Shown here: positions 2,526 to 49,767 of the stretch, in pieces
Numbering within the stretch: position 1 is the stretch's first letter
Layout: each line of letters begins with the position of its first letter
Origin: Pseudovirgaria hyperparasitica
Taxonomy: Eukaryota
Reading direction: 5' to 3' (one strand)
Length of the DNA: 64,000 nt
NCBI GenBank assembly: GCA_010093815.1
Contig: ML996566.1
Notes under the pieces: generated by a model
Told to the model about the DNA's origin: nothing
Database searches by the model: none
The model's input: the letters and a program-made list of their open reading frames with translations, nothing else
Program-made: the position numbers and the translations under genes

Positions 2526-3379
2526 AACTCGTGTGATGCTTTATTCCAGATAGTATTACTGCTCAGGCCGCGTAGGCAAACAGTGCGCTTCTGAGAGCCC
2601 GGAAAGAGCTGTGAACGGATGCGCGAAACAATTGACCGTGTAGTCTGAGGTGCACTAGCCCGTCGCGTCGCGTCAAGTGGTGTCGTCATTGCGAGAGATC
2701 CATACATGAGCGCTAAGCGCGTCCACACTAACGCGCTACCGTGGACCCTTGCATTTGGATCTCGATTCTACAGAGTCAGACAGAGTGACGGCTATTTGCG
2801 TGGAGTGAGTGAGTGATCTTCGAACCCTGAATTAGCCATAAGCCAACGCTAATGATAGAAGCATTCATTATATTTGATTCAAATGGCATCACAATGCCCG
2901 TCCTTGCCACCTACCTCAATACACATGCATTATAGCTCAACCCACAAAATATGGTCAACATCAATGTCTAAGCGTACAGGACCTAACCATGGGGAAAGTT
3001 TGGTCGGTCTTCAAATCGCTGGTCGGAGCTATAGACTGCCTGTCAGGTAAATATCGAGTTTGCATGTTATAATAGTCCAGGAGAGCTGTGAAAGCGTGAC
3101 TGTTCGAACCAGACACCAGACGCAATATGACTGACCATTCTAAAAGCAGAGAGAGTAGCCTGATGTGCTGACACCTGAGCAGTAAGCTTCAGCCTGGTTT
3201 TGAACAACTTATCTCCTACGTTTAGACTCTCAAAGCTTATTACCCAACACGCGTTATGAGCTCTGCTGCCTCGGATGGAAGAGCAAGAAAGTGTAGCACA
3301 TTCTCTTCTGATCACATTTATAGCTCGATCATCTGTGCCACCCCAGCTACACCGGACAGATCCTTGCTGCAGACGTTCA

Positions 3380-3895
3380 CAAGGAAGGTCGATGGCTTTC
3401 GCGACACCAGTGAGTCATGGCAGCGTGTAGCTACAATGAAGAGCGACTCAGAAATTGATGGGGAAAACGACGAGCGAGTAATACCTTTAGGACCCTCAGT
3501 ATCCTCATCTATCCTCTCAGCATATTGTCGATAGTATCTGTGACTCATATCGGCGTGTTAAAAAAGGCCGCAGTTCGTCGTCAGACACTCCACCGACCTT
3601 CTTCAGCCGATCAAATCTATCATTCTATGACGCAAAGGCTTCTTCGAGAAGTTTTCTCAACCACATTCTACTTAGTAGATGCCTCGCCCTTAGAAATCAG
3701 GTTTTGAAGATCAGGTGAACTCAGAAGAAGTTTGTGGACTTGACAAGTTTAATGTTGCTATAATTATCACACTTGCGGCCCGTAGACAGGCATCTCCTGC
3801 AAGAAGGCTTTCCTATCACATTTAATACGTACACCTGTAAGATGCATGAGTGAACATCCAATGGGCGAACAGGCCTAGAGACTACATTGCACGAC
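3380..3895 (-). pseudogene. Relic Zn(II)2Cys6 transcription factor gene
   Basis: RIKCD-(frameshift)-GKPSCRRCLSTGRKCDNY at ~3762-3830. C-terminal motif remnant LFIVATRCHDSLV-(frameshift)-KAIDL at ~3385-3445. Stops between them; the middle region appears deleted. Confidence 0.65.
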
Positions 3896-4972
3896 GGTCG
3901 TAAAGGGCCCCCGATCAATCCTTGCTAGGTTCCTTATCAGATTCAGACCATCCCCTTGTATGCCCATTATTGCTAGAGCAGAGGGCTGGGGCCACTTGGG
4001 GTCCATCAACGCTAGTGCACTCTTTTCCCATTGGTTTGTCCGTATACTCTTCTAAGCATAGCGTGATAATGGAATGCCTACTCGGTACAAAAGAAAACAT
4101 TCCAACCAAAAGCACTAGCATGCCTTTGTGGTATTCAGTCCGTATGAGGTCTAACAAGGTCGATTCACTCCATAAAGCAGGAGTCCTCTTTGCTCATTCA
4201 CGGTTATCATTATGACCTGTATATATGAATCGCAAGCCTGCTTGGCAAGTGATGTACAGTGCATGTTTCCTTATAATATGCAGAGCACAAGATTAAGGGA
4301 AGATCCCGATGCTGGTCTAGACTCTAGACCGCTGCCCGATAGCTTCCCCACAGGAGCATCTAAATATAGGATACCGTACGACCTGCCGGCCACCAGCGGA
4401 GACTGCGAATAAGGCTTAATTTCAACCTTAAATCTACTTCAAATGTCCTCTCTATTCAAAGAACCATGTCGTACAAGGTGCAAACACGTGGGAGATGTTC
4501 TTCAGCTTCATGATTAAGAGGCGGCACGGAACATCTCTCTCTGCTCCACATTGACGAGCTTTCACCCGACTTATTGCCTCGGGGCAGCTAGACTCTCTGC
4601 GGCCTGATCTGCGAAATCCAAACAAGTAACGACGCCGCAGAAACCGAGCTGTTACATCTAACGTCGAAATTCCTCGTATGAAGTCAAACAACGCAACATT
4701 GACGGTTTGCCATCGTTGCTTGTCAGCTGATCTCCTACATCCTCTCGGAGCTCGAGTCACGCATTCTCTAGCACACTCTGCGCGTGCGTGTGTGTCTGGT
4801 GCTCCGTGCACAGGTGGTGCTAATTACTTCTATCTATCCATTGCTGTTCTTCGTCAGCTACCACCAATCCCACGAACAAAGTTTACACCGCCCTCGACAA
4901 CGTGCCCCTAGTCTTGTCTTGCGTCGCACTTCAAGGTTATGTTGCTGACTAACCACCGGACCAACTCTTTTC

Positions 4973-30100: not shown

Positions 30101-32037
30101 CTATGCTCCGCGGTGGTCATCCTGTCTCTCTTTTTCTAGCCGTTGCTGCACGGTACGCTGATGCCTCACACCCCACCAGGAAACCGCTATGCCCGCTATG
30201 CTCGCAAAGAATGTCAATATGTAAGCTTTCTTGAAGCATGCTAGACCATCTCCACACTCACGCTCGCCACCCGCCGCGACGGTCGAGTGATGGTCATAGA
30301 TTACTCCGTAGAATAGATTGAAGATATTCCCGGATACAATCGGCGCCAAAGTGATGAAACCCCAATTCACTGACAAATTACTCCCACCGAAAGAATCCAC
30401 CACTAGGGCAGGCATGACTCCAAATAAGAAGCCGTATGCCAGTCCAGTAAGACTGGATACTATCCACAGCTTGTGCGGGTTTTCGATGTTCATTGCTGCG
30501 ACCTGTGCGAGGGCAAAAATAGTTCCAGCGGCAGTAGCACACCAGAACCGACTTGCATGCAGTCTCTTAACGAGTATGTCTGAGCTGACGCCGGACAAAA
30601 GACGCCCTGTGAATGACATGAACGATAACACCGAAACATGGAACGACTGCTGATTCATAATGGTGGCCTCAGGTACTGAAGTATCAAAGTGCCTCCAAAG
30701 GGCTTGAGTCTTGAATGACGTTAGTCTAAAGCCAGAAGCAGCTCTCCTTTCTTGCTTACATTGTTGCCAATATTGTTGATGGTCATGAGGCCTATACCAG
30801 ATAGTAGACCCATTTGTAACCAAAGTTGCCAGAATTCTTGCTTCAATAGAAGGGCAAGTCCCGACATATCTACCCAACGTGAGCATTTGCTCCTCATATT
30901 CTGGACGGCGTCGTCCGGGATCGAGGCTACGGAAGCGATATCGTCATCTGCGGTGGACGCTGTGGCAAGACCGTCGTTTTCTGTTCATGATAGTCCGCAA
31001 GAGTCTCTCAGATTCACAAGGATATACATAGAGTGAAATGTAACCAATACAGACAGATAGAGCAGCCAGTCGCAGCAGGCCTCATCGAATCAGGAAATCA
31101 CACGCGTAAGATGGACTGCTCTCCTGGCATGACCACCTTCATCTGTATCTGCACGATGTGGGACGGAGGGTCTCTTACCTGGTTCATTTAGCACGGGCTG
31201 GGTCGATCGGCTGGATGAAGTAGAGTGAGTGCGATATAGCTCGGTAGAGTCTACCCTTCGTCCCCCATCACTACTAGGTATTGCTGTATACGGAGAGTGC
31301 GCAGGTACGATGTGTAGAAAGAAGATAGAACCGAAGACAATAGCGGACGTGCCGATCGCTAAGAGTAGCAGGAAACCGGAAGTGTTATCAGGGAACACTA
31401 TGCTGGAGATCGTTGAGAAGAAGAATGCGCTGAGACCGAACGCTGCGACTGGGAAAGCTGTTGCTGTCCCACGATGTTGTGGCCAGTTCAATGCAGCTAC
31501 TAACTGTGAGCTCCAGTTTCTGAGCCAGCTGCCACTACCTACCAGTTTTCAGAGACGCCTGGAAAGAGCTGCAGCTGCCCATACCAGTCAAAAACGAGAA
31601 GAAGCACAACAACGAGGTGCTCATCCCGTCCATCCCTCTGTCATATGCTTGATGGATTGGGAAGTATCCTGCGGCGAGACAAAGGGCACCTATCAAAGCA
31701 GCTGCTCTTGGTCCTTTCTGGTCCACAAGTATTCCAAACGGTATTCCCGTGATGTACATGCCCAAGTTCCCAAATGTCCCCTGGTTGAACTCAGTATGTA
31801 GAGGCTTGGTTTGCGGCGAGGAGCACGTACGATAAGCTCACCTTCGGTGGCGGAGAGCTTCAAACGCTCAGCAAGCTGAGGCTCCCATGCTGAATATGCA
31901 TACTGCTCATTGCTTTATCAGCATTAGGACACTATGGCAGCTATCGTACGTACGTTTGTCCCGCTTGCAAGTGATGCTGCAGTTGCTGCCACGAGGGAAA
32001 CGATGCGTATGGTGTTCTGAGCTTTGATTGAACCCAT
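30101..32037 (-). CDS. MCH1: MCH1-like / nodulin-like MFS transporter
   Basis: LASGTN|YAYSAWEPQLAERLKLS, GILVDQKGPR, NWPQHRGTATAFPVAAFGLSAF, GIGLMTINNIGN, GRLLSGVSSD. Multi-intron. Confidence 0.88.
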
Positions 32038-34593: not shown

Positions 34594-37302
34594 CTAGTAC
34601 CATTGAATATCCTGCATAGCGTTTCTGAGGACCTCTGTCCGTGTCTTTTGCATTTCCGGCGCGTTTGCACCAATCTGCTCCACGATCTCGAGCATGCGTC
34701 GTATATCGATGCGTACGAGCGCGTGCAGGGGATCCGAGACGAGAGGAGTGCCTGAGACGGCTTCCTGTTCGATAGCAAGGATACGCGCCATCATAAGCTT
34801 GGGAGAAAAGAATCACGTCAGCAATAGATTCGCGAGTTGGAGCAGGGTCGACCAGGGGAATAAAAGGATTCGGCGTGGAAGGATGCATAGTAGAGGAGAT
34901 CGTGCGCTTACCGCTTCTTCGAACGCGCGGTGCTGAAACACCCACCATACCCCGGCGTCGACCTTCATGTACTCCCACATCTGGAAATACGTCTCGAGGC
35001 CCATGCGCGCAGCCTCGAGGGCGCCGCGCACATCACAGGCTACCCCAGCGGCCTCGTTTTCGTCGGCCTGTAGGATCATGTAGCAGTGCCAATACACACT
35101 GCGGCAGAGCATGTTCTGGCGGAAGCCGCGCGGGTCTGCCACGGCCAGACTGCTAATCGAGTCGCGGTCGCCCACGGTGAGATGCGAAGGAAACGAGGAA
35201 AATAGGTCCCGGAACGCGCCGCTCAGGTCCTCTTTCTCGCGCTGCGAGTTGCATAGGGGTCGTGTGAGGGACCGGGGCATGCAAATGATGCGCTGAACCA
35301 AGTTTCCCATGCGCCACATGCATCGTATGTATTCGCGATCGGAGAGCTCGTATGGAGGATAGGGATTCGACGGAGCGATATTGCTGATGCTCATAGGGTT
35401 GATGTTGATATCACTGTCACCGTTGATGGAAGAACTGGTGTTGAATGGCGAGTTGGAAAGATTATCGGTGAGGAATTCTACAGGTATATCCGAGAACGTG
35501 CCGGTGGGAGGAAGTTTAAGAAGGACGGTGAGGAAAGTATCTTGTACCATGACTGCCTGCCAGACCTTCAGCCGTGACAGTTTCTCTTGTGGTGTCCCTC
35601 TTGGCACAATGGTTTCGGGATCTCGATTAAGCCCCATGGCATAGGCCTGCCGCATGAGTACACCCCCAAAAGACCATGCGTCCGAAGCATGGTTATCGTT
35701 CATAAGGAAGTAGCAGTGGAGTATCATGGCTTGGATTGTTCGTATTGACACTCGACTGAGATAGCTGGATATGCGAAGAGCCTGGTGTGCAGCAGAGACA
35801 TAAAATTCAGCCATTTGTGATCTTTCCTGCTCAGACGTGCCTGTCACGAAATGCAGCCCCATTGCGTACATGACTAGATGCAAGGATAGTAGAGCAGGAT
35901 CTGCTGTGTGTTTTTCTTCCTGTGGCATCGCCCAGAAGTCTTCGTAGTCAACATAAAACGAATGACGTTCTATCATTGGATACACAGGGTCGACTGTGTC
36001 GAAATATGTCGAAATGAGAAAGTCTGCCTGGTCTTTACTAGGCAGTACGCCGATGACCTCGGAAAGACCCCCTTTACTTGTCCAGTAATTCGCAAATGGG
36101 TGTTCGGCACTGAAGCCGAAAACCGGAGACGGCGCATGCTTTGTGTTAGGAATGTTGGATAGGAGAAATGGTGACGAAGATGTTGAAGAAAGAGAATTCT
36201 GTCGGAACAGAGATCGTGGAAGGGGTATCTAGGCAACACTAGGGTTAGTACAGAGAGTACTTATAGGAGTTGGGTTACCGCTGCGACTTAAGACATCGAA
36301 TTTTGCGAACCAATAAGAGGCCGAGGGGGTTAATCAAGGATTCAAATGAGAGTCTCTCGGCCGGGCAATGTGCAATAGACCGAAGGCACGGAAAAGCCCG
36401 TGAAGGTGTAGAGAGATTCGAGATCTTCAGATTGTGGAAGCACAACAAGGTACCCGCAAAACGGCGGCGCGAGATTGACGAATTGACATACCTCTGGCGG
36501 AACAGTCACATTTGTGGGATCTGGTGGAGGGAAGACGGACTCTTTCTTAGTTCTTTGGGGCACTCTGGGGGCTGATTTGCTGTATAGCGTGCATCAGCGA
36601 GGATCTTCCCGATAGTGAAAGTCGGGCTGCAGATCCGGGGATAAAGATGATGCCGAAGATCAGCAAACGGCTATAAGAGCGGGGACGTACTCTACGGATG
36701 CTATAGCATTGGCGACGTCTGAGTACTTGCATTCGGACATGCGCTTGATACATGCTAAACATTGTGGTCGAGCGCGATCGCACTATATGAGATTCGGTCA
36801 GTCTCAGTATGCCGACGACGATGAATTGCGACGTCTGATTGAGCGAGTAGAGAATGGGACGTCATGTATGTATATTGAGTGCTGAGTCGTGCCCCCACGT
36901 AATATTTGCTTGAGAAGCGCATTTGTATGTTGTTGCATATTGCTATAGTCGCCTATACCACAGAAGGCCGTAACCCCTTGTCGTGTGCTTGTGCAACACT
37001 TGTAGCAGACAACAGGGGATTAAATTAATGGGATCATAGTGACAAACCTTTGTCTTCCTTTCCACACATTCGGCACAGCTCAAGGTGGGTTTGTTACGCT
37101 TTTGCTTCTTCTTTGGCGGAACATCGCATTTCTTGGACCTGGATACCCCAGATTCCTGCGGAGATGCAGTACTTGGGCTGCTATGTGATGGCGCAGCAAC
37201 CAGACCAACAACACTCAATGCTGATGACGGGGAAGGAGAGGGCTGATGCTCATGCTGATGGTGTTGGTTGATATTGGAGCCGGCTCCAGCGTTGTCAGCC
37301 AT
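34594..37302 (-). CDS. Zn(II)2Cys6 transcription factor with fungal-specific TF middle domain
   Basis: KRNKPTLSCAECVERKTK|CDRARPQCLACIKRMSECKY, then LPSKDQADFLISTYFDTVDPVYPMI and LMRQAYAMGLNRDP. Four introns, two of them ~265 nt. Confidence 0.9.
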
Positions 37303-40008: not shown

Positions 40009-41021
40009 TCATTCTCCCCCTGGCAAGATTCTACCCTCGGCCTTGTCTGGAAATCCAAAGTTCACACCAAAAGCAGGGTACACATAGCGAGTAATGCCCT
40101 TCTCTTTGTGGATCTTCTCCAGCGATTCAAGCTCCTCCCCAGAAAGCACGATCAACTTCGTGTTTTCCTCGATTCGCGAAGGCGTTACCGATTTGGGAAT
40201 GACGACGATGCCTCTCGCAATAGCATAGCTCAGGAGTACTGTGCCGGGCGATACTTTGTGTTCGTCTGCCACAGACTTGACGGCGACCTCATTGAATAAT
40301 GGACTCCCGGTGCTGCCGAAAGGACTATAAGCTGTGACGAGAATGTTGTTCTGCCTGCATGTGTCGACGACCTCTTGCTGCGGAAGATACGGATGGTTTT
40401 CGATCTGGTTTACTGCGGGCACAGTCGTAGCATGCTTCAGGAGAATTTCGAGGTACTTCTTCGAATAGTTTGAGACTCCAATGGCACGGGTCTTCTCTTT
40501 GGGAATCTTCTCCATCCGTTTCCAGGTCTCGATGTGCGAGGTGGAGACGTCCAGGTCTCTGCTACCGTCCTCAAGCTTGGGAAACAAAGGATGGTTACCT
40601 GCACGTTCAGTTATTCCCACTTTGTGGCACGTAGGCCATGAATCTATTTACCTTTTGGATTCATGGGACAAGGCCAATGCATCAAGAACAAGTCGACATA
40701 ATCTAAGCCCAAGTTCTTCAAGCTCTCGTCCAGACCCTCCTCAACGCGTGTGTGAAACGTGCACCACAACTTGGTTGTTACGAAGATGTCCTCCCGCTTC
40801 ACAGCACCCGAGGCGATGGCGGCTTTGATGCCCTCACCAACCTCATTCTCATTCTGATAGCAGTATGCGGCATCGATGTGCCTGTAGCCACTTTTTAGAG
40901 CATGTTCGACGGCCTGCTTGACTTCGCCAGGCGATGATTGCCAGGTGCCTAACCCCAAAGCTGGGATAGTGGTGCCGTTGTTAAGGGTGAAGCGGGTGTT
41001 GATATCTGGACTTGGCGACAT
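40009..41021 (-). CDS. gar1: Aldo-keto reductase, GAR1-type NADPH-dependent D-galacturonate/D-glucuronate reductase
   Basis: AKR tetrad (HIDAAYCY, TKLW, MHWP). NPK|GNHPLFP, GVSNYSKKYLE, NQIENHPYLPQQE and C-terminal RYVYPAFGVNFGFPDK closely follow Trichoderma reesei GAR1 as I recall it. Confidence 0.82.
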
Positions 41022-41270
41022 GACGTGTGATGATGTGATCTAAAGCAGGCGTCAGGTTGTCTTTCGCGAGCGAAGGTCACAGCCGGTCTTTTAGGATAAG
41101 ATTCTTAACAGCACGACGACGGAGAAATATGCTTGCACAGTCGGCGACGCAGCTGCTACGGAATGTTTGCCGGGCTTCTAGCCGCATAGATCATCAAATT
41201 AAGGACAGTGGTCGGTGCTTTCAGCTCAGAAACCGACGACATTTCGCTGCTTGATTGCCCGAGATTCTTG

Positions 41271-41280
41271 GTGGCGGGGT
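41271..41280 (+). promoter_or_regulatory. GTGGCGGGGT, contains CreA/Mig1 consensus SYGGRG
   Basis: In the AKR/MIOX divergent promoter; identical 10-mer at 44941-44950. Confidence 0.5.
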
Positions 41281-42175
41281 AGCAGTACCTTAGCAGTCGA
41301 ATATCTGCCTGAGGGCATTTAGGCTTTTATGCCTGAGGCTCAGATACTTAAAGATCAGCGCGGACAACTCACCTCATATATTGTTCTCTTATCCTCATCC
41401 TTCATCCGCACGCCGCTTACAGATTTCGAACATGTATAATACGCATTTCGAAGATCATCACGCATCATCATCCATGCGTGTGCAGAAGCCCGACATGTCA
41501 CTACGTTCCCTGACCATGCCAATAGCCTTACCCCGCTGGCCAAGGAGGAAATTTTCGCCGCAAGGTCAAAACTTCAACCGCCAGACTTGCTCCACCTATA
41601 TCCGCGCCTCATGCACGTTGAAACTTCTATGCTATGATACATGTGCCTCTTCGGGCGTTTTTCTACTTTTTTCAACTTATGGGAACGCGCGTGGTGCCTA
41701 GAGATTTGCCTCCCCATGGATCTGGTGGCTAGGCTAGCCGTCCACCCTGGAACAATATGGAGACTTGGAGCGTCACGACACGCAGCATGATCATGGCACG
41801 GTCTTTATCCCGGCCACTTTACATCTATCAATTTTCTCGAATGGCGTACATGGTAAGTGGGTTCTCGTCAGGTTTGTTCACCACTTTCGACTCGGCAGAC
41901 GAGGTAATATCTTGGTGGTCAACACCATCTACTTTCCCTGCTCGTGCTGGCTCCACCTGGGGCTGCTAGGATGGATTGTCTGCGGATGTACGGGCTACAT
42001 ATACTCAATGCTACGTTCAAATCTATTGTTTCTCCCCAGACCATAGAATTCCCAGTCTCTGTCTCTCTCCGCAATTAAGCACCCAGAATTAGCAATCACT
42101 CTTCATATCTCGTGGGTTTGTTTTCTCGAAGTCCAAATAAATACATTGTCGCATACATACACACACATCTGCATC

Positions 42176-43153
42176 ATGGCCCCTGGCGCTATATTCGAAG
42201 CTCCCAACGTTGCCGAGGATTTCAACAGCCATCGAGATGGCCTCGCGCTAGAGGCTACATCCGATGCCATTGACGAAGTCAACGTGCTCAAAGCTGCCAT
42301 GAAAGTCAAGCAAGGCAGCGCCACCCAGAAAGAAAAGGACATCTACGAGCAATCCCAGTTCGATGCCGAGAAGGACAAGACGCAATTCCGACAGTACGAG
42401 GAGGCATGCGACCGGGTGAAGAACTTCTACCGTGAGCAACACGAGAAGCAGACCGTAGCATACAACCTCAAAGCCCGCAACGACTTCCGGAGCAAGACAC
42501 GCGCCGAAATGACAATCTGGCAGGCAATGGAGAAGCTCAACACCCTCATCGACGAGTCCGACCCGGACACTTCCCTCTCCCAAATCGAACACCTCCTACA
42601 GGCCGCCGAAGCCATCCGTCGCGACGGCAAACCCCGCTGGATGCAACTCACAGGCTTGATCCACGATCTCGGCAAGCTGCTCTTCTTCTTTGGCGCCGAG
42701 GGCCAGTGGGACGTCGTTGGCGACACGTTCCCCGTCGGCTGTGCGTTCGACCGCAAGATCATCTACCCGGACACCTTCGCCGGCAACCCGGATTCTCGAG
42801 ACTCGATCTACGCCACTGAGCATGGCATCTACACGCCTGGCTGCGGCCTCGACAATGTGATGCTGAGCTGGGGCCACGACGAGTATCTGTACCACATCGC
42901 AAAGGAGCAGAGCACGTTGCCGGACGAGGCGCTGGCCATGATCCGCTACCACTCCTTCTACCCGTGGCACAGCCAGGGCGCATATATGTGGATGATGAAT
43001 GCGAAGGACAAGAGGATGCTGGAGGCTGTGCGGGCGTTCAACCCCTACGATCTGTACAGCAAGAGCGACGACGTGCCCAAGGCTGAGGAGTTGAAGCCCT
43101 ACTACATGGAGCTGATTGACGAGTATTTCCCGAATAAGGTCATCAAGTGGTAG
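42176..43153 (+). CDS. MIOX: myo-Inositol oxygenase
   Basis: LIDESDPD, QIEHLLQAAEAIR, GLIHDLGK, QWDVVGDTFPVGC, MLSWGHDEYLY, IRYHSFYPWH, FNPYDLYSK (di-iron ligands intact). Intronless CDS. Confidence 0.97.
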   Translation: MAPGAIFEAPNVAEDFNSHRDGLALEATSDAIDEVNVLKAAMKVKQGSATQKEKDIYEQSQFDAEKDKTQFRQYEEACDRVKNFYREQHEKQTVAYNLKARNDFRSKTRAEMTIWQAMEKLNTLIDESDPDTSLSQIEHLLQAAEAIRRDGKPRWMQLTGLIHDLGKLLFFFGAEGQWDVVGDTFPVGCAFDRKIIYPDTFAGNPDSRDSIYATEHGIYTPGCGLDNVMLSWGHDEYLYHIAKEQSTLPDEALAMIRYHSFYPWHSQGAYMWMMNAKDKRMLEAVRAFNPYDLYSKSDDVPKAEELKPYYMELIDEYFPNKVIKW

Positions 43154-43950
43154 GAGACACACTGAGATACCGTTGTTTCTTGTATCTTGTAATTGTTCTT
43201 TATTGTCATTCTCCCTTTGGGTTTTTACTAGATAGAGCATAGGCTTGATTTGCCTGTGTCCGGAATACGGACAGGCTACGAATAATGACCATGACACTTC
43301 CTCCTTGACTATTGGACGCTGGTCTGTTTTGCAAATGGTGATTGAACCTATGTATGTGCATATCTGCCCAGCCACCTACACGCACGGCACTTGCGCCTTT
43401 TAAAAAAGACTGGAAATACAACATACATAGCGCTCCCTCCGCGCGGGGCCGCACGGCATTCACAATCGGTGTGCGGCGCTGAGAGGTACGCAGACCTTAC
43501 TTCCCTGATGCATAATCTAGCGGCCAATGGAAGTCCGAGCACGGTAGCTACCGCCCACATCTACCAATGATGCAGCAAGCTTTGCAATCCTGTGCAGCCT
43601 CCGGTGGACACCGGTAGGGATGTCGACACGTTTTCTCATGGCACGAAGACTCATCATGGGGACGGAACCACTTGCCTGCGCAAGGAGAGACTGGCCAATC
43701 GAGGCCTTTTCCGGATGGATGTCCCTGCGGCTGATAGTCGGTGTGGACTATGGATTCCGGTACTACCTTGCCTACCTTAGCTTGCAGGAGCTGGAGGACT
43801 CTCCGGTGCGGAGACTCACGACGAACGGCTGTACTACTTGCCAGAAATAAGTCGAGACGACCAATGAGGGATTAGTCACACAGTATTCTCTTCGAAACAC
43901 GAGCAAGTCTGGCAAAACAGAGCATCACGGCCGCCTCGGGCTGTTCCGAC

Positions 43951-44799
43951 CTATCTCGCCATCCATCCCCCGTCAACAGTGAGAATCTCTCCTGTCACAT
44001 ACGCACTCGCTCTCCCTGCAAGAAACACCACCGCTCCCTTGAAGTCCTCCGGCCGTCCCCACCGCCCGGCCGGAATCCGCTCTAGAATCGACGCTGCCCT
44101 TTTCTCGTCGTTGATTAATGCTGTATTCATCTCCGTCGCAATGTAACCTGGCGCGATCGCATTCACATTGACCCCTTCTCCGGCCCACTGGTTCGACAGC
44201 GCCTTCGTAAGCTGCGCAATGCCACCCTTCGACGCAGCGTAGGCCGGGACGTTGATGCCGCCCTGGAAGGAGAGCAGAGAGGCGACGTTGATGATGGAAC
44301 CGCGCTGGTTCGTGGTGTTAGGAAGCGGAGGTAGGGTACGCATGTGTGCGCCTACGTCGCGGCAGAGAACGAAGTTACTTGAGAGATTGACTTGCAAGAC
44401 CTCGTCCCAGTCCTCAATCGGGAACTCGTGTGCTGGGTGGCGGCGCTGGATACCTGCGCAAGTGAGGAGGATGCGGATCTGTAGTTCTGGGCTTTGAGAG
44501 AGGAGAGTTGGGACGATGCTGGAGACGGCAGCGCGGTCGGAGAGCTCGGCGACGTGGATAGTGCATTTGCGACCGAGGGCTAAGATTTGGTGCTGGGTTT
44601 CAGTGTTGGATGTGTCGCGCTGGAGTAGATGTGAGTTGCTTGAATGATTAAAGACGAGAGAGGAACGGACCTGGATGAGGATAATGTCGGCGCCAGCTTC
44701 AGCTAAGGCTAGGGCCATTGCTTGCCCGATTCCTCGAGTTCCGCCTGTGACGAGGGCGGTTTGGCCCTCGAGAGAGAAGAGTTGCTGGATCGAGCCCAT
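43951..44799 (-). CDS. SDR of the KduD/IdnO type; probable 5-keto-D-gluconate 5-reductase (GluF-like)
   Basis: [21 protein letters not shown] (IdnO-like), [31 protein letters not shown] (KduD-like). Intron 44620-44670. Confidence 0.85.
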
Positions 44800-44940
44800 G
44801 ATTGGGGTTGTGCTGTATTGCAAACTGATGCTGCCCTCAATACAATAATATGAGTAGAAAGGAAAGGGTGTGATATATCAGAATCTTCTAGACCCGATCG
44901 GCAAGACAAGCCGCCAAACTCAGGAGCTCAAGGAGGCTTC

Positions 44941-44950
44941 GTGGCGGGGT
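44941..44950 (+). promoter_or_regulatory. GTGGCGGGGT CreA-type site in the SDR/MDR divergent promoter
   Basis: SYGGRG match; a second inverted GCGGGG lies at ~44961-44966. Confidence 0.5.
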
Positions 44951-45188
44951 GTGAAGACTGCCCCGCCAAAATGAGGCCTCCGTCGGCGTTTGCTTCCCCG
45001 ATTTCTGAGTCTCAATTGCCGACACAGCGGAGTCTTAGCCGCTTGTGTAGCCGCTTTTCCTCCCGATGACTGCAGGACGCAGTAACACATGTACGCGCCT
45101 TTGGAAATGCCTCTTCACATCAAGCATTTTTTATCTCTTGAGAAGCCTCCTCTCTACGATTGAAATATCGCATTGAGATTTACTGACA

Positions 45189-46477
45189 ATGGCTCAAGCA
45201 AATGGATCTGGTGCAAATAGCAAGATCAATGCATCAGTGCTCCACGGGGCCAAGGACCTAAGAATTGTAAAGCGCCTCATTCGCAGCCTCCAAGCTCAAG
45301 GACTGACAGAGAACACAGGAGCAACGAGGAATCTTCCCTCCGGATCCACATGAGGTTCAAGTCTCTGTCCGCGCGACTGGGTTATGCGGCTCCGACCTCC
45401 ACTATTACCGCCACGGTCGCAATGGAGATATCATCATGAAAGAGCCCATGTCGCTCGGACATGAATCTGCTGGAGTAGTGGTAGCTGTGGGATCAAAAGT
45501 GACGGACCTCAAGGTCGGAGATAAAGTGGCCATGGAGGTCGGACTCCCTTGCACACAATGCGAGAGATGCGCCGAAGGACGGTACAACATCTGCAAAGAC
45601 ATGCGCTTCGCTGCTTCGGCAAGAAACTTTCCACATACGCAGGGTACTCTAAGGGATAGGATGAATCATCCAGCGAAGATGTGCCACAAGTGAGTGCCCA
45701 AGCTTAGAGCTAGCAGGACATATTTGCTAACACTCAATCAGGCTTCCTGAAAATGTTTCCTTGGATCTGGGGGCACTACTAGAGCCACTAGGTGTTGCTA
45801 TCCACGGCACGAGACGAGCTCAAATTAGCACAGGTTGCACAGCGGTGGTGTTCGGCGCTGGTGCTGTCGGCCTGCTTGTCGCAGCAATGACTAAGATCTC
45901 CGGTGCTGGCACCGTAGTCATTGCAGATATAGATCCAGGACGAGTGAACTTTGCAGTGCAGCACAATTTTGCGGACCATGGATACACTGTCCCCATGAAG
46001 AGGGGGAATACGATCGAGGAGCAGTTTGACATTGCTCGTGAGACGGCAGGCAACATTGGCAAGATCCAGCGCACAAGACCAGATACCCTCGTCGGAGAGG
46101 CTGATGTTTCATTCGAATGCACAGGTGTTGCGTCATGCCTGCAAGCAGCCATCTTCTCGACGCGACCGGGTGGAAGAGTCATGATGATCGGAATGGGCAC
46201 GCCGATTCAGACTCTTCCAATCTCAGCTGCTGCTCTACGAGAAGTTGATCTCGTGGGCGTCTTCCGCTATGCGAACACGTATCCTACTGGGATTGAGGTT
46301 GTGTCGAAGACCGGTCCGAATTATCCTCAATTCTCCAAGATGATAACGCATCGTTACGCCGGATTAGACAACGTAGAGAAAGCATTCGAGATGGCAGCGA
46401 AAACGAAAGACGATAAAGGTGAACTGGTATTGAAAGTGATGATTGATATGGACGATAGTGACAAGGCTAGGCTTTGA
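45189..46477 (+). CDS. Zn-dependent medium-chain dehydrogenase; probable L-idonate 5-dehydrogenase (IdnD/GluE-like)
   Basis: GLCGSDLH, LGHES, CTQCERCAEGRYNIC (structural Zn), GAGAVG, ADID. Substrate loop MRFAASARNFPH resembles E. coli IdnD (MRFFGSAMYFPH, from memory) more than sorbitol/xylitol dehydrogenases. Two introns. Confidence 0.85.
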
Positions 46478-47061
46478 AGTATCTGATTGTTTATGTCTTG
46501 CATATAATGGGGAGTATGGATCTAGGAGCTGCGTTAGTTGTCACAGAATACATACCATTGAGGACCCCGCGACATTCATGCGATCAGTCACCAACAGAAC
46601 CAAGCGATGTTGTTCGAATGTCGATGTGTACAGTCAGCCTGGCGGAACATGTGTTCCGCCAAGGCAGGAGAGATCGACGAGTCGGCGAGAATTCCTTCAT
46701 CCGCAAACCTCCATGACCCACAAATACCCGCCCAAAGCTTCGTCGCCGTGGCCCCTGAATGTGATGCTGTGAAATATGCCATAGAGCGCTGTGATTCGCT
46801 CTTTGATTGAGGGTCTGCCTCCGAAATGGCCCATCCACATCTGTCTTGTGGCATAATTACACAATCCGGGGTTTGTCAACAGATTCCTGTTCTGGTGCTG
46901 ACGGCGCAAGTTGGAAGTCGTCGAGACAGAACTGCAGTGTACGTTTGCTAGACGCGTCCCAAGGTCTTCTTACATCATCACTATTTACAAATCACTGATA
47001 CTCTCGTTGTAAAGGCCAACGTTCCCATCCACCACCATCTCGAAGTTTCACAGTCCACTCA

Positions 47062-48185
47062 ATGGCACCTCGACGTCTCAAGGTTGCCTGCTCCGGCCTC
47101 GGCCGCATGGGTTCTCGCCATGCCCTCCATTTCCTCAATCGCACACCCCGAGCAGAGCTCGTAGCAGCCTGGACACCAGATGAGAAAGAGCTGGCATGGG
47201 CCAAGCAGAACCTTGAGCCCTATGGCACCACACTTTACACTAATTACGAAGAGATGCTCAAGCATCCAGGCCTTGAAGCTGTTGTGATTGCCACGGTGAC
47301 TACTGCGCACGCTCAGCAAGCCATACAGGCCATCGAGGCAGAAAAGCATGTGCTTTGCGAGAAGCCGCTGAGTACGAGCGTCGAGATTGTAAGCCCTGAG
47401 ACTTGAGGTGCCGGAACAGAGCAGGATGCTGACAAGGTGATCAGTCACAGACTGTTGTTGACGCTGCGGCTAAGAAGCCTCATCTGAAAGTCATGTGTGG
47501 CTTCTCCCGCCGCTTCGACGACTCCTACCGGGACGCCTTTGAGCGCATGGACTCGGGCGCCATCGGTCGCCCTACGATCGTCAGGTCGCAAACGTGCGAC
47601 ATGTACAATCCGACGCCGTTTTTTGTTGAGTACTCCCAGTTCTCAGGAGGTATCTTCGTGGACTGCAATGTGCACGATATTGACCTTGCATTATGGTTCT
47701 TCGGCCAGGACTCGCAAGTCAAGAGCGTCGCTGCGTTTGGTGTCACGGCTATCGAGCCCGACTTGAAGAAGTACGGAGACGTTGATAACGGTGTTGGTGT
47801 GGTGGAGTTCTATGGCGGCAAGATTGCGTACTTCTACTCATCGCGCATGAACGCGCCGGGCCAGCACGATGAGACGGAGATTATCGGCACCAAGGGGAAA
47901 CTGGCTATCAATACGCGTCCGCAGAACAATTTGCTGGAGGTGCATGAGGCGAACGGTATCCGACGTGAGATTCCTTTGACATACTATGGTCGATTCGAGA
48001 ATGCGTTTGTGAAGGAGGCAAATGAGTTCACGGCGGCATGTCTAGATAACAACAAGCTTCCATTTAAGCTGAGCGGAGCTGTACAGGCAGTCGTAATTGG
48101 ATGTGCTCTTCAGGAGAGTCTGAGAAGTGGGAGGAAGATCTTTTTCGACGAGACTGGCAAGCAAGTGGAGCAGGCGAAGTTATAG
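47062..48185 (+). CDS. Gfo/Idh/MocA oxidoreductase, inositol 2-dehydrogenase (IolG)-like
   Basis: GLGRMG, HVLCEKPL, GFSRRFD, GGIFVDCNVHDID. One intron. Confidence 0.9.
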
Positions 48186-49035
48186 ATAATGGCAGACATG
48201 CTGGTCAATAGATGCATAGCAAGATAAGATAATGATAATACAAATTTTCAAGCTGCAGAAGTAATTCTGGTGGGCTCTCCATACGGTAGAGTAATGGTAT
48301 GTCACTCACAACTGGTGGACACCGTGCGCTGTCCCGGCCTCAGTGCCTCTACTTACCGACTATAATTACTCTCCAAAGAAGCCTGAACGGTTTTGTGCCA
48401 CCATCGCCAGCACAACGTCAACCTCACTCAGCATTCTCGCCAAAACGACCCAAACAACAACGGACGGATCCGCATCCAATAGACGCAAGGCCGATCCCCT
48501 AGCCGCAAAAAGCACAGCCAAGAATATTGGCTCGACGCCCGCGTAAGACCCTCCAGGGCTGAGCGAACCACGCGCCGCATCGGGACAATGATTTCATCGG
48601 GCGATGACGTCTATCCCCAACTTTTCTCCCGTCACCGCTTGCTGTTGTTCACAAAGGCTATTATCAGGTAGGAATGAACGGATACCACACCACCACACCA
48701 CCATCACGATGCCCGTCCCCATCATACTACCGAATAATCCTGTGCCTTTGTGTAGCTGCGTGGCTATCCTTGTGCCGCAGAACCGGACGAGATGCGTCGT
48801 ACGCACGTCCTTTTCGGGGCCGTTTTGCCATACACACACACACTACGTACAGACCGTTTTCTGGAGACGGGGTCCTCGCTATAGAAACTCTGGGAGCTAA
48901 TTAGTGCGTTGATGTTGAGTGGCGCGGTCGGCCGATCCGTACCTATTGTCTGCACTGTGTGTCTACGACGCAATACTGTAACATCGTGACTCTGTGGTCG
49001 GCGTCTTTGTGGGCCATTCGTTATAGTTGTAGTGC

Positions 49036-49059
49036 GTGTGTGTGTGTGTGTGTGTGTGT
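49036..49059. repeat. (GT)12 microsatellite
   Basis: Seen directly; it runs into a TATAAA-like element upstream of the AA1-like gene. Confidence 0.95.
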
Positions 49060-49194
49060 ATAAAGAGACGTCGAATACTTACACTCAGATACTCGAGCAT
49101 CAGTATAAGCAAACTCGCATCTCAAGCCAACAGCCATCTACATTCTACACAAACACCACATCCACCCTCCCAAACCATCACAACAACCACCACA

Positions 49195-49767
49195 ATGTCC
49201 CTCAAATCCACCATCCTCAGCCTCCTCCCCACCGCCCTCCTCCTCACCAGCAGCACAACCGCCGCCCCTCTCGCCCCACGCGCCGGCTGCCCAGGCGCAA
49301 CAACATCCTTCTCCTTCGACGTCAAAAACTTCGACTACCACGACGGCACCACCTTCTCCACCCCCGCGCACCAAATCCCGGGTGGCTTCGTCGCCTTCAA
49401 CCTGACCTCCGCCGCGGACGTGGTTCCACGCCAATGCAACGCCTACTCCACCCAGCTATCCGACTTCTACTACGGCACGCTGAACTACACGTGCACGACC
49501 ACGACCGCGGACGGGGAGGTGGTGCAGACGGGCAGTCTGTTCACGTATGACACGCCGGGGGAGACGCTGGTGCTTGTGGAGCCGTTTGAGTGTGATGGGC
49601 AGAAGTACGTGGCCAAGGGGACGTATACGTTTGAGCCGCCGTTGCAGTGTGTGACGGAGGAGTATCAGAATGATGATTGGCAGCAGGGGGAGATTTATAG
49701 CTCGCGGAAGAGGACGTGTGAGGAGAGGGACTTTGCGTTCTTCGCGGAGGTGGAGAAGGTTGAGTAG
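49195..49767 (+). CDS. Small secreted Cys-containing protein, Alt a 1 (AA1)-like domain
   Basis: Signal peptide MSLKSTILSLLPTALLL, FSTPAHQ, QLSDFYYG, YQNDDWQQGEIYSSR, six Cys. Confidence 0.75.
   Translation: MSLKSTILSLLPTALLLTSSTTAAPLAPRAGCPGATTSFSFDVKNFDYHDGTTFSTPAHQIPGGFVAFNLTSAADVVPRQCNAYSTQLSDFYYGTLNYTCTTTTADGEVVQTGSLFTYDTPGETLVLVEPFECDGQKYVAKGTYTFEPPLQCVTEEYQNDDWQQGEIYSSRKRTCEERDFAFFAEVEKVE

Follow-up and report, generated by a model that had tools for sequence, protein, structure and literature searches.

A conserved cluster of five fungal oxidoreductase genes proposed to link myo-inositol cleavage to D-glucuronate catabolism

Why should five oxidoreductase genes stand side by side in a fungal genome, and do they serve one pathway? 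The question is raised by a stretch of 64,000 nucleotides from contig ML996566.1 of Pseudovirgaria hyperparasitica (Dothideomycetes, Acrospermales), referred to here as the window, in which positions 40009-48185 encode in order an aldo-keto reductase (AKR), a myo-inositol oxygenase (MIOX), a short-chain dehydrogenase/reductase (SDR), a medium-chain dehydrogenase/reductase (MDR) and a Gfo/Idh/MocA-family protein (GFO). A reading of the window from its letters alone (the original prediction) had proposed that the genes couple inositol ring cleavage to the idonate-type glucuronate route of Aspergillus niger. We consider it probable, with appreciable room for doubt, that they form a conserved fungal catabolic gene cluster for myo-inositol that runs via glucuronate and this A. 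niger-type route. The proposal rests on family assignments, conserved clustering and A. niger biochemistry.

Gene models were built from stop-to-stop open reading frames (ORFs), Pfam matches and manual splicing at canonical GT..AG sites. The order, orientation and families that had been claimed were all confirmed by Pfam and the spliced models, namely:

41021..40009, minus strand: AKR, 319 amino acids (aa), one intron (40599-40651), Pfam Aldo_ket_red on both exons
41022..42175, no strand: AKR/MIOX divergent promoter region, 1154 bp between the gene models
42176..43153, plus strand: MIOX, 325 aa, no intron, Pfam PF05153
44799..43951, minus strand: SDR, 265 aa, one intron of 51 nt (44620-44670), Pfam adh_short
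44800..45188, no strand: SDR/MDR divergent promoter, 389 bp, with CGG-N11-CCG at 44984-45000
45189..46477, plus strand: MDR, 394 aa, two introns (45267-45318 and 45690-45741), Pfam ADH_N and ADH_zinc_N
47062..48185, plus strand: GFO, 355 aa, one intron (47389-47444), Pfam GFO_IDH_MocA and C-terminal domains

Thus AKR and MIOX diverge from each other, as do SDR and MDR, and GFO follows MDR after 584 bp; from left to right the spacers measure 1154, 797, 389 and 584 bp. Four of the five genes (AKR, SDR, MDR and GFO) have introns. The SDR model is identical in every residue to an NCBI protein of P. hyperparasitica (P0001), and for the models of AKR, MIOX, MDR and GFO the only support is canonical GT..AG sites and continuity with homologues. 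The earlier statement that nothing lies between the genes holds for gene-sized features, none of which occurs inside the spacers, and is not extended to small ORFs there.

The linkage of these genes is more than chance, because it recurs in many other fungal contigs and genomes. In named genomes, linkage was read from NCBI locus tags in three homologue searches (with SDR, MDR and MIOX), using the best 120 matches of each. Among the matches listed, the tags of SDR and MDR are next to each other in Coniosporium apollinis, Cryomyces antarcticus, Neofusicoccum ribis and Alternaria ethzedia, and in at least 11 further species the two lie on equal-sized contigs. In the same lists, seven species, from Dothideomycetes and Lecanoromycetes, have MIOX one to three tags away from SDR or MDR, namely: N. 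ribis, Bathelium mastoideum, Bogoriella megaspora, Plenodomus lingam and Neodothiora populina, together with the Lecanoromycetes Lignoscripta atroalba and Trapelia coarctata. In N. ribis the tags returned by the MIOX, SDR and MDR searches are consecutive (008157, 008158 and 008159).

The same linkage is found in metagenomes. A scan with an alignment of 30 MDR sequences (A1) gave 80 loci with flanks of at most 10 kb, against which the five window proteins were run by tblastn; near-identical loci were then collapsed into 56 lineages. All five genes are linked in 7 of these lineages. MIOX is present in 18 of the 80 loci, GFO likewise in 18 and SDR in 32. AKR and MIOX are adjacent and divergent in every locus that holds both (15/15), and SDR and MDR are divergent in 29 of their 32 common loci, the other 3 having them co-directional. 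Fifteen lineages have at least 5 kb on both sides of MDR: three of them hold all five genes, two lack only GFO, one lacks only MIOX, one has AKR, SDR and MDR, three have SDR and MDR, and five have MDR alone, these last at 47-62% identity and in housekeeping contexts.

Three architectures occur, which can be written, with strands, as MIOX(-) AKR(+), SDR(-) MDR(+), GFO(+); as AKR(-) MIOX(+), SDR(-) MDR(+), GFO(+), which the window shares with locus L060; and as GFO(-) ... SDR(-) MDR(+), MIOX(-) AKR(+). The flanking genes vary by lineage and include those for a tRNA synthetase, a TPR protein, Cdc73, HIM1, GET2 and PGA2. Because the pairs appear in three orders and with differing flanks across lineages, the two divergent pairs behave as modules that have remained together while their order changed, as is characteristic of a cluster maintained by selection. 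The predicted physical coupling of MIOX to uronate/hexonate oxidoreductases is therefore seen again and again across lineages, and the outcome named beforehand as fatal to it, a linkage found in no other genome, is decisively contradicted by this wide conservation. The scan is anchored on relatives of the window MDR, and it is therefore no measure of how frequent MIOX is elsewhere. Among the 80 loci and their scanned flanks, neither a transporter nor a regulator nor a 2-hydroxyacid dehydrogenase is conserved as a member.

Some loci depart from these patterns. One group (L062, L045 and L046) keeps AKR, SDR, MDR and GFO, with no MIOX within 9.5 kb. In L039 a tRNA synthetase gene stands directly after MDR, with no GFO between. 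The lineage of L077-L079 has co-directional SDR and MDR, its MDR being 57% identical to that of the window, followed by genes for an enolase-superfamily dehydratase and an aldolase of the dihydrodipicolinate synthase (DHDPS) family (L077:1524-2330(-), L079:1339-2097(-) and L079:3569-4696(-)). The closest solved structure to this dehydratase is the putative D-galactonate dehydratase 3rr1 (E 2.5e-68), and the arrangement looks like a wider hexuronate/hexonate catabolic cluster.

The divergent promoters themselves have an element in common. We tried 52 half-site/spacer combinations, with the expectation taken from 30 mononucleotide shuffles. The Gal4-like element CGG-N11-CCG is present in 12 of 18 SDR/MDR spacers, one per lineage (2.6 in the shuffles), in 9 of 13 AKR/MIOX spacers of other lineages (2.8 in the shuffles), and in 1 of 13 MDR-GFO spacers. 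In the SDR/MDR spacer of the window, the element at 44984-45000 belongs to an extended form, CGGGNNAG-N6-CCGA, on the lower strand (44983-45000). The SDR/MDR element lies inside the best-conserved block of a 13-lineage spacer alignment and, when the opposite strand is read, its extended form is that of the AKR/MIOX element. This form has 14 matches in 704,177 bases (loci and window together), 11 of which fall in the two divergent spacers. Upstream of GFO, no element common to the two divergent promoters was found. A plain k-mer search for common promoter words returned top words that are partly unannotated first exons, and the CreA-like CCCCGC words in it were not above the shuffle maximum. 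Because both divergent promoters have a Gal4-like element in common in most lineages, these data suggest a single zinc-cluster regulator, encoded elsewhere, for both divergent pairs, with GFO not covered.

A perfect 16-bp CGG-N10-CCG palindrome was also noted in the MDR-GFO spacer of the window (46643-46658); it lies 419 bp upstream of the start of GFO and is conserved in none of the 12 further lineages examined.

What, then, would each enzyme do? The assignment of MIOX to its family is unambiguous: PF05153 is matched at E 2e-129 with 431 bits (cut-off 25), over the full profile (1-249 of 249). Its motifs HLLQ, IHDLGK, WGHDEY, RYHSFY and NPYDLYSK contain what would be, by the mouse and human structures, the His/Asp di-iron ligands, and it is 77-88% identical to the 120 fungal homologues listed (best 120). 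AKR matches Aldo_ket_red on its two exons (E 5e-22 and 3e-23), and has the motifs HIDAAYCY, TTKLW and LMHWP, presumably providing the Asp-Tyr-Lys-His tetrad. Its nearest solved chains are yeast Ara1 (4ijc; E 5e-33) and the aldehyde reductase AKR1A1 (E 6e-29), and AKR1A1 is the animal glucuronate reductase according to the available text of PMC12337341. At metagenome locus L076, an AKR that is 49% identical to that of the window adjoins the SDR-MDR pair; together with the gene numbers in T. reesei and N. crassa described below, this is the sole and indirect pointer to orthology with T. reesei GAR1 or A. niger GarB. We propose that AKR is an NADPH-dependent D-glucuronate reductase giving L-gulonate.

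MDR matches ADH_N (E 4e-27) and ADH_zinc_N (E 1e-16), and its motifs (GLCGSDLH, LGHESAG, LLEPLG, CTQCERC, GAGAVG and IADID) together with Pfam identify a zinc-dependent enzyme with catalytic Cys/His/Glu and an NAD-type Rossmann fold, in which the Asp of IADID is presumably the marker for NAD. Among solved chains it comes nearest to the sorbitol dehydrogenases 3qe3 and 1pl6 (E 7e-35), with the L-idonate 5-dehydrogenase IdnD of E. coli (6dkh) far behind (E 1e-12); a xylitol dehydrogenase (7y9p; E 5e-27) and an L-arabinitol 4-dehydrogenase (3m6i; E 5e-30) are matched as well. The candidate function is that of an NAD-dependent hexonate 5-dehydrogenase acting on L-idonate and possibly on L-gulonate.

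The SDR matches adh_short (E 5e-43) and adh_short_C2 (E 5e-45) and has the classical TGxxxGIG and Ser...YxxxK signatures, with YAASK present. KduD (4z9y; E 3e-50) and gluconate 5-dehydrogenase (1vl8; E 2e-43) are its nearest solved chains. GluF of A. niger is described in the available parts of PMC5306355, PMC5814732 and PMC4870679 as a 265-aa SDR for the NADPH-dependent reduction of 5-keto-D-gluconate. We deduced its ends from the gluF primers and guide RNA (MSAAVASLFSL at the N-terminus and GWMGR at the C-terminus); together with the length of 265 aa, these ends fit a 264-265-aa Eurotiales group (P0061, P0070, P0115 and P0116) that is 70% identical to the window SDR. Moreover, an N-terminal LFSL and a C-terminal GGWMGR (GGWM-R) run through the entire SDR subfamily, the window protein included. 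Because the primer-derived ends, the length and these subfamily-wide signatures fit, the SDR appears to lie in the immediate family of GluF, with a duplication in the Eurotiales, and need not be its one-to-one orthologue. A tree of 44 rows, hand-picked from 120 listed homologues and built by a quick method, groups the window SDR with Stachybotrys on a branch of weak support, and its backbone is open. We propose a 5-keto-D-gluconate reductase of the GluF/KgrA type. The equation of the SDR with GluF in the original prediction is reasonable insofar as the tight subfamily of the SDR appears to include GluF, but it is indirect, the top A. niger match being a paralogue (EHA20545.1). Placing GluF by accession was tried and abandoned: the A. 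niger cluster of best SDR matches holds EHA20545.1, not EHA27001.1.

No role had been put forward for the Gfo/Idh/MocA gene. Its family is upheld (GFO_IDH_MocA, E 2e-23; C-terminal domain, E 3e-24), and by closest structures and NCBIfam it is inositol-dehydrogenase-like. The nearest solved chains are the inositol dehydrogenase of L. casei (4n54/4mkx; E 1e-36, nearly gapless over 219 residues), followed by the myo-inositol 2-dehydrogenase of L. plantarum (3cea; E 6e-29), 4hkt and 3euw; the best NCBIfam match, and the sole one for exon 2, is IolG (TIGR04380). The motifs CEKP (EKP) and DCNVHD (D-x3-H) are present and are common to the whole family, and in the ESM Atlas the matches of exon 2 are bacterial Gfo/Idh/MocA clusters of a generic kind, with one 'inositol 2-dehydrogenase family' cluster, nothing beyond the family. 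In Leptographium procerum, the available text of PMC9788770 reports that pinitol induces MIOX, iolG and iolT, and that MIOX is required for growth on myo- and D-chiro-inositol. This response of MIOX and iolG to pinitol suggests a range-widening role, and GFO is most likely an inositol dehydrogenase through which other inositol isomers enter the pool available to MIOX for cleavage.

Assembled in this way, the pathway would begin with MIOX opening the inositol ring with O2 to give D-glucuronate, GFO bringing other inositol isomers into the pool, and AKR would reduce D-glucuronate with NADPH to L-gulonate. Two steps would be encoded outside the cluster, namely: the 2-oxidation of L-gulonate to 2-keto-L-gulonate, and the reduction of the latter to L-idonate by a GluC/GluD-type enzyme. 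MDR would then oxidise L-idonate at C5 with NAD+ to 5-keto-D-gluconate, which the GluF-type SDR would reduce with NADPH to D-gluconate for entry into the pentose phosphate pathway. The net effect of the MDR/SDR pair would be to invert a hexonate at C5.

Comparison with known systems shows where this scheme is supported and where the window differs. In A. niger, by the available parts of PMC5306355, PMC5814732 and PMC4870679, L-gulonate is made by GaaA and at least one further unassigned reductase, GluD is a D-2-hydroxyacid dehydrogenase, and gluD diverges from gluE across 455 bp. The D-glucuronate pathway there and the window have in common an AKR-type uronate reductase for the first step, an MDR (GluE) and an SDR (GluF). 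The gluD-gluE (gurB-iddA) pair is likewise divergent with a short common promoter and an MDR-type hexonate 5-dehydrogenase. However, the partner of gluE is gluD, encoding a 2-hydroxyacid dehydrogenase, whereas a gluD-type divergent partner of MDR was not found here, its place being taken by SDR both in the window and at 29 of 32 loci. Compared with A. niger, the window adds MIOX, AKR and an inositol-dehydrogenase-like gene and has no GluC/GluD-type gene, and the corresponding A. niger genes are scattered (NRRL3_00319, 02652 and 06930, in the available part of the PMC13158570 supplement). No 2-Hacid_dh domain was detected in any flank scanned with Pfam, and none of the 116 + 77 ORFs around MDR genes without an SDR neighbour is a 2-hydroxyacid dehydrogenase by Pfam; therefore, gluD-gluE-type loci are not recognisable by context.

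A further parallel may exist in two Sordariomycetes. The available part of the PMC13158570 supplement predicts as orthologues in Neurospora crassa NCU01904 (kgrA/gluF), NCU01905 (iddA/gluE, together with NCU07022) and NCU01906 (garB), and in Trichoderma reesei TrC1352W (kgrA/gluF), TrC1351C (iddA/gluE) and TrC1350W, which is GAR1 (garB). Because the gene numbers are consecutive, the SDR-MDR-AKR trio appears to be adjacent in both species, which the available text of PMC13158570 does not mention; the strand letters of the T. reesei trio match the SDR(-) MDR(+) AKR(-) layout of L076. Unlike in the window, no MIOX or Gfo/Idh/MocA gene accompanies the trio in that part of the supplement's list, and none lies within 10 kb at L076. 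N. crassa is described, in the text available for it, as having the pathway genes yet not growing on glucuronate. For L-gulonate to 2-keto-L-gulonate, the available part of PMC13158570 gives still no gene in any fungus as of April 2026.

The use of MIOX with IolG-like Gfo/Idh/MocA dehydrogenases on inositol isomers in L. procerum resembles the window, although the available text of PMC9788770 reports no physical cluster or downstream glucuronate enzymes. The first two steps of animal myo-inositol catabolism involve the same families (MIOX and AKR1A1), whereas the later animal enzymes CRYL1, C11orf54 and DCXR have no counterpart in the window cluster. The animal genes are not known to be clustered. 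In the E. coli L-idonate (GntII) system, the MDR gene idnD for L-idonate 5-dehydrogenase lies beside the SDR gene idnO for 5-keto-D-gluconate reductase, in a bacterial operon that also includes genes for a transporter, a kinase and a regulator. This is the same chemical logic as that of the window SDR/MDR pair, but IdnD is only distantly related to the window MDR (E 1e-12, against 7e-35 for sorbitol dehydrogenase, and sub-threshold in NCBIfam).

Several observations weigh against the proposed inositol-to-idonate pathway. The steps from L-gulonate to 2-keto-L-gulonate and on to L-idonate are not encoded in the cluster. The best NCBIfam matches of MDR, GFO and SDR fall short of their cut-offs: MDR has IdnD as its best match with 108 + 78 bits against 469, GFO scores 166 (exon 2) + 83 (exon 1) bits for IolG TIGR04380 against 355, and for the SDR the model of gluconate 5-dehydrogenase ranks behind that of KduD, its best match, with 246 bits on exon 2, under a cut-off of 339. 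The ends of GluE, deduced from primers P22/P23 (MTVNST... and ...ESGDD), are absent from the best 120 MDR homologues listed and from the 149 other representatives examined, and no Aspergillus protein is among those 120. For the SDR, the highest-ranking A. niger protein is a paralogue of 257 aa, EHA20545.1, GluF being EHA27001.1, and the backbone of the 44-row tree does not single out a true Eurotiales orthologue. As for the linkage, MIOX lies on another contig than SDR and MDR in Rhizodiscina lignyota, Lepidopterella palustris and Glonium stellatum, and among the metagenome loci MIOX has dropped out of the cluster in the L062 group and GFO in L035, L008 and L039. Finally, the promoter element was drawn from 52 patterns on related sequences with mononucleotide shuffles, its extended form is post hoc, and the window's own AKR/MIOX spacer contains no CGG-N11-CCG.

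The original claim that ring cleavage is coupled to the idonate route therefore stands in part: MIOX is linked to genes of the GluE and GluF families, but because two needed steps lie outside the cluster the coupling itself is an inference with a live rival, a C5 epimerisation of L-gulonate. Our preference is for the idonate version, since no other has experimental support in fungi.

The rival, which we rate as rather unlikely, would be a self-contained route with neither 2-keto-L-gulonate nor L-idonate: MDR would oxidise L-gulonate at C5 to D-fructuronate (5-keto-D-mannonate), from which SDR would give D-mannonate. AKR and MDR together would be a fungal two-step stand-in for the bacterial uronate isomerase, just as xylose reductase and xylitol dehydrogenase replace xylose isomerase. 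L-gulonate and D-mannonate are C5 epimers, as are L-idonate and D-gluconate, and the stereochemistry is favourable in that C2, remote from the reacting carbon, is the sole position at which the two substrate series differ. L-gulonate is also sorbitol carboxylated at C6, and MDR is far nearer to the sorbitol dehydrogenases than to IdnD. The cluster would be self-sufficient, with no 2-hydroxyacid dehydrogenase in or near it at any locus examined, and the sugar-acid dehydratase and DHDPS-type aldolase that adjoin SDR and MDR in L077-L079 are enzymes that a hexonate product would need. However, the L077 dehydratase is closest to a galactonate-type dehydratase, not ManD, and there is no mannonate dehydratase in the cluster of the window. 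In addition, at least one fungus does use the idonate route, because a gluD mutant accumulates 2-keto-L-gulonate (in the available parts of PMC5306355 and PMC5814732). The available text on GluE reports no activity on L-gulonate, and does not state the composition of the substrate library that was used.

The idonate route could also be completed within the cluster by GFO, acting either as the missing enzyme for L-gulonate to 2-keto-L-gulonate or as a C2 epimerase from L-gulonate to L-idonate; the five genes would then be complete from inositol to D-gluconate. Such an epimerase could, by analogy with glucose-fructose oxidoreductase, hold a tightly bound cofactor. We judge this role for GFO to be decidedly unlikely, and keep it open because GFO is tied to the SDR/MDR module even where MIOX is missing. 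It is attached to that module, not to MIOX, in every architecture, remains in the L062 group without MIOX, and in the 18 loci that have it lies directly downstream of MDR in 17 and adjoins SDR in the remaining one (L009). The latter locus has a second SDR, 2960-3772(+), and a second MDR, 3938-4843(-), just upstream of GFO, which is on the SDR side there.

We regard an animal-type glucuronate-xylulose route as highly improbable. In this scheme decarboxylation would proceed via 3-keto-L-gulonate, SDR being L-xylulose reductase and MDR xylitol dehydrogenase. MIOX and an AKR1A1-like reductase are indeed its animal entry, and MDR resembles xylitol dehydrogenase 7y9p and L-arabinitol 4-dehydrogenase 3m6i. 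However, the cluster has no L-gulonate 3-dehydrogenase or 3-keto-L-gulonate decarboxylase, and the SDR is of the KduD/gluconate-5-dehydrogenase kind, with no L-xylulose reductase among its 60 best solved chains. Fungi are, moreover, typically without the CRYL1, BKGD and DCXR set in the available text of PMC12337341.

That the genes are neighbours without a common function, their order reflecting the shared ancestry of close genomes, is scarcely credible: oxidoreductases are numerous in fungal genomes, MDR is alone in 5 of the 15 fully informative lineages and a scan anchored on MDR relatives is biased to related lineages, but the linkage is kept in three orders with differing flanks and in two classes of fungi, the lineages with MDR alone are mostly the most distant (47-62% identity), and a conserved element is common to both divergent promoters.

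Enzymes, pathway and the concept of catabolic clusters in fungi are already known; what is new is the five-gene composition, its breadth across two classes and the implied link between inositol catabolism and the glucuronate pathway. In agreement with the original prediction that the arrangement was undescribed, a full-text literature search returned, among the papers it covered, no account of a fungal MIOX in one cluster with glucuronate-pathway genes. It was in A. niger that the fungal D-glucuronate pathway was elucidated, with glucuronate regarded as a sugar of plant cell walls. The joining of MIOX to a GluE/GluF-type pair in many Dothideomycetes and in lichen-forming Lecanoromycetes suggests that a main physiological role of the pathway may be the disposal of inositol-derived glucuronate. 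The cluster also supplies candidates, namely: AKR as the second glucuronate reductase, and GFO either as a dehydrogenase of inositol isomers or as the L-gulonate enzyme that is missing. It raises the biochemical question of whether MDR and SDR act on L-gulonate and D-fructuronate as well as on L-idonate and on 5-keto-D-gluconate, and enzymes of this kind are relevant to the bioconversion of glucuronate, gluconate and 2-keto-L-gulonate (a vitamin C precursor).

The surroundings of the cluster are as unrelated to it as had been claimed. Med21 and RRG7 genes lie on the left, and on the right an AltA1-like gene and a gene for a class I (leucyl-type) tRNA synthetase. The AltA1-family gene (Alternaria allergen 1-like; 49033-49764, plus strand) is directly downstream of the cluster. 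Pfam analysis of the window and flanks likewise bore out that the cluster has no transporter, no regulator and no 2-keto-L-gulonate reductase of the 2-hydroxyacid dehydrogenase type. Farther to the left are a gene with a fungal-specific transcription factor domain (Fungal_trans; 34816-36228, minus strand), about 4 kb from the cluster, and major facilitator superfamily (MFS)/Nodulin-like ORFs (30104-31548, minus strand), about 9 kb from it. These were considered as cluster members and set aside; they are probably not part of it, because neither has a counterpart at any of the 80 related loci.

Two observations concern the public record. Neither the window MIOX nor the window MDR has a 100% match among the matches listed, the best being 88% and 76%, respectively. 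Because the SDR has an identical NCBI protein and none is listed for MIOX or MDR, the latter two genes may be unannotated or differently modelled there. Lastly, three MIOX proteins (P0289, P0357 and P0360) that are 78-83% identical to the window MIOX have two trees, Carpinus fangiana and Quercus suber, as their recorded source, and probably represent fungal DNA within plant assemblies.

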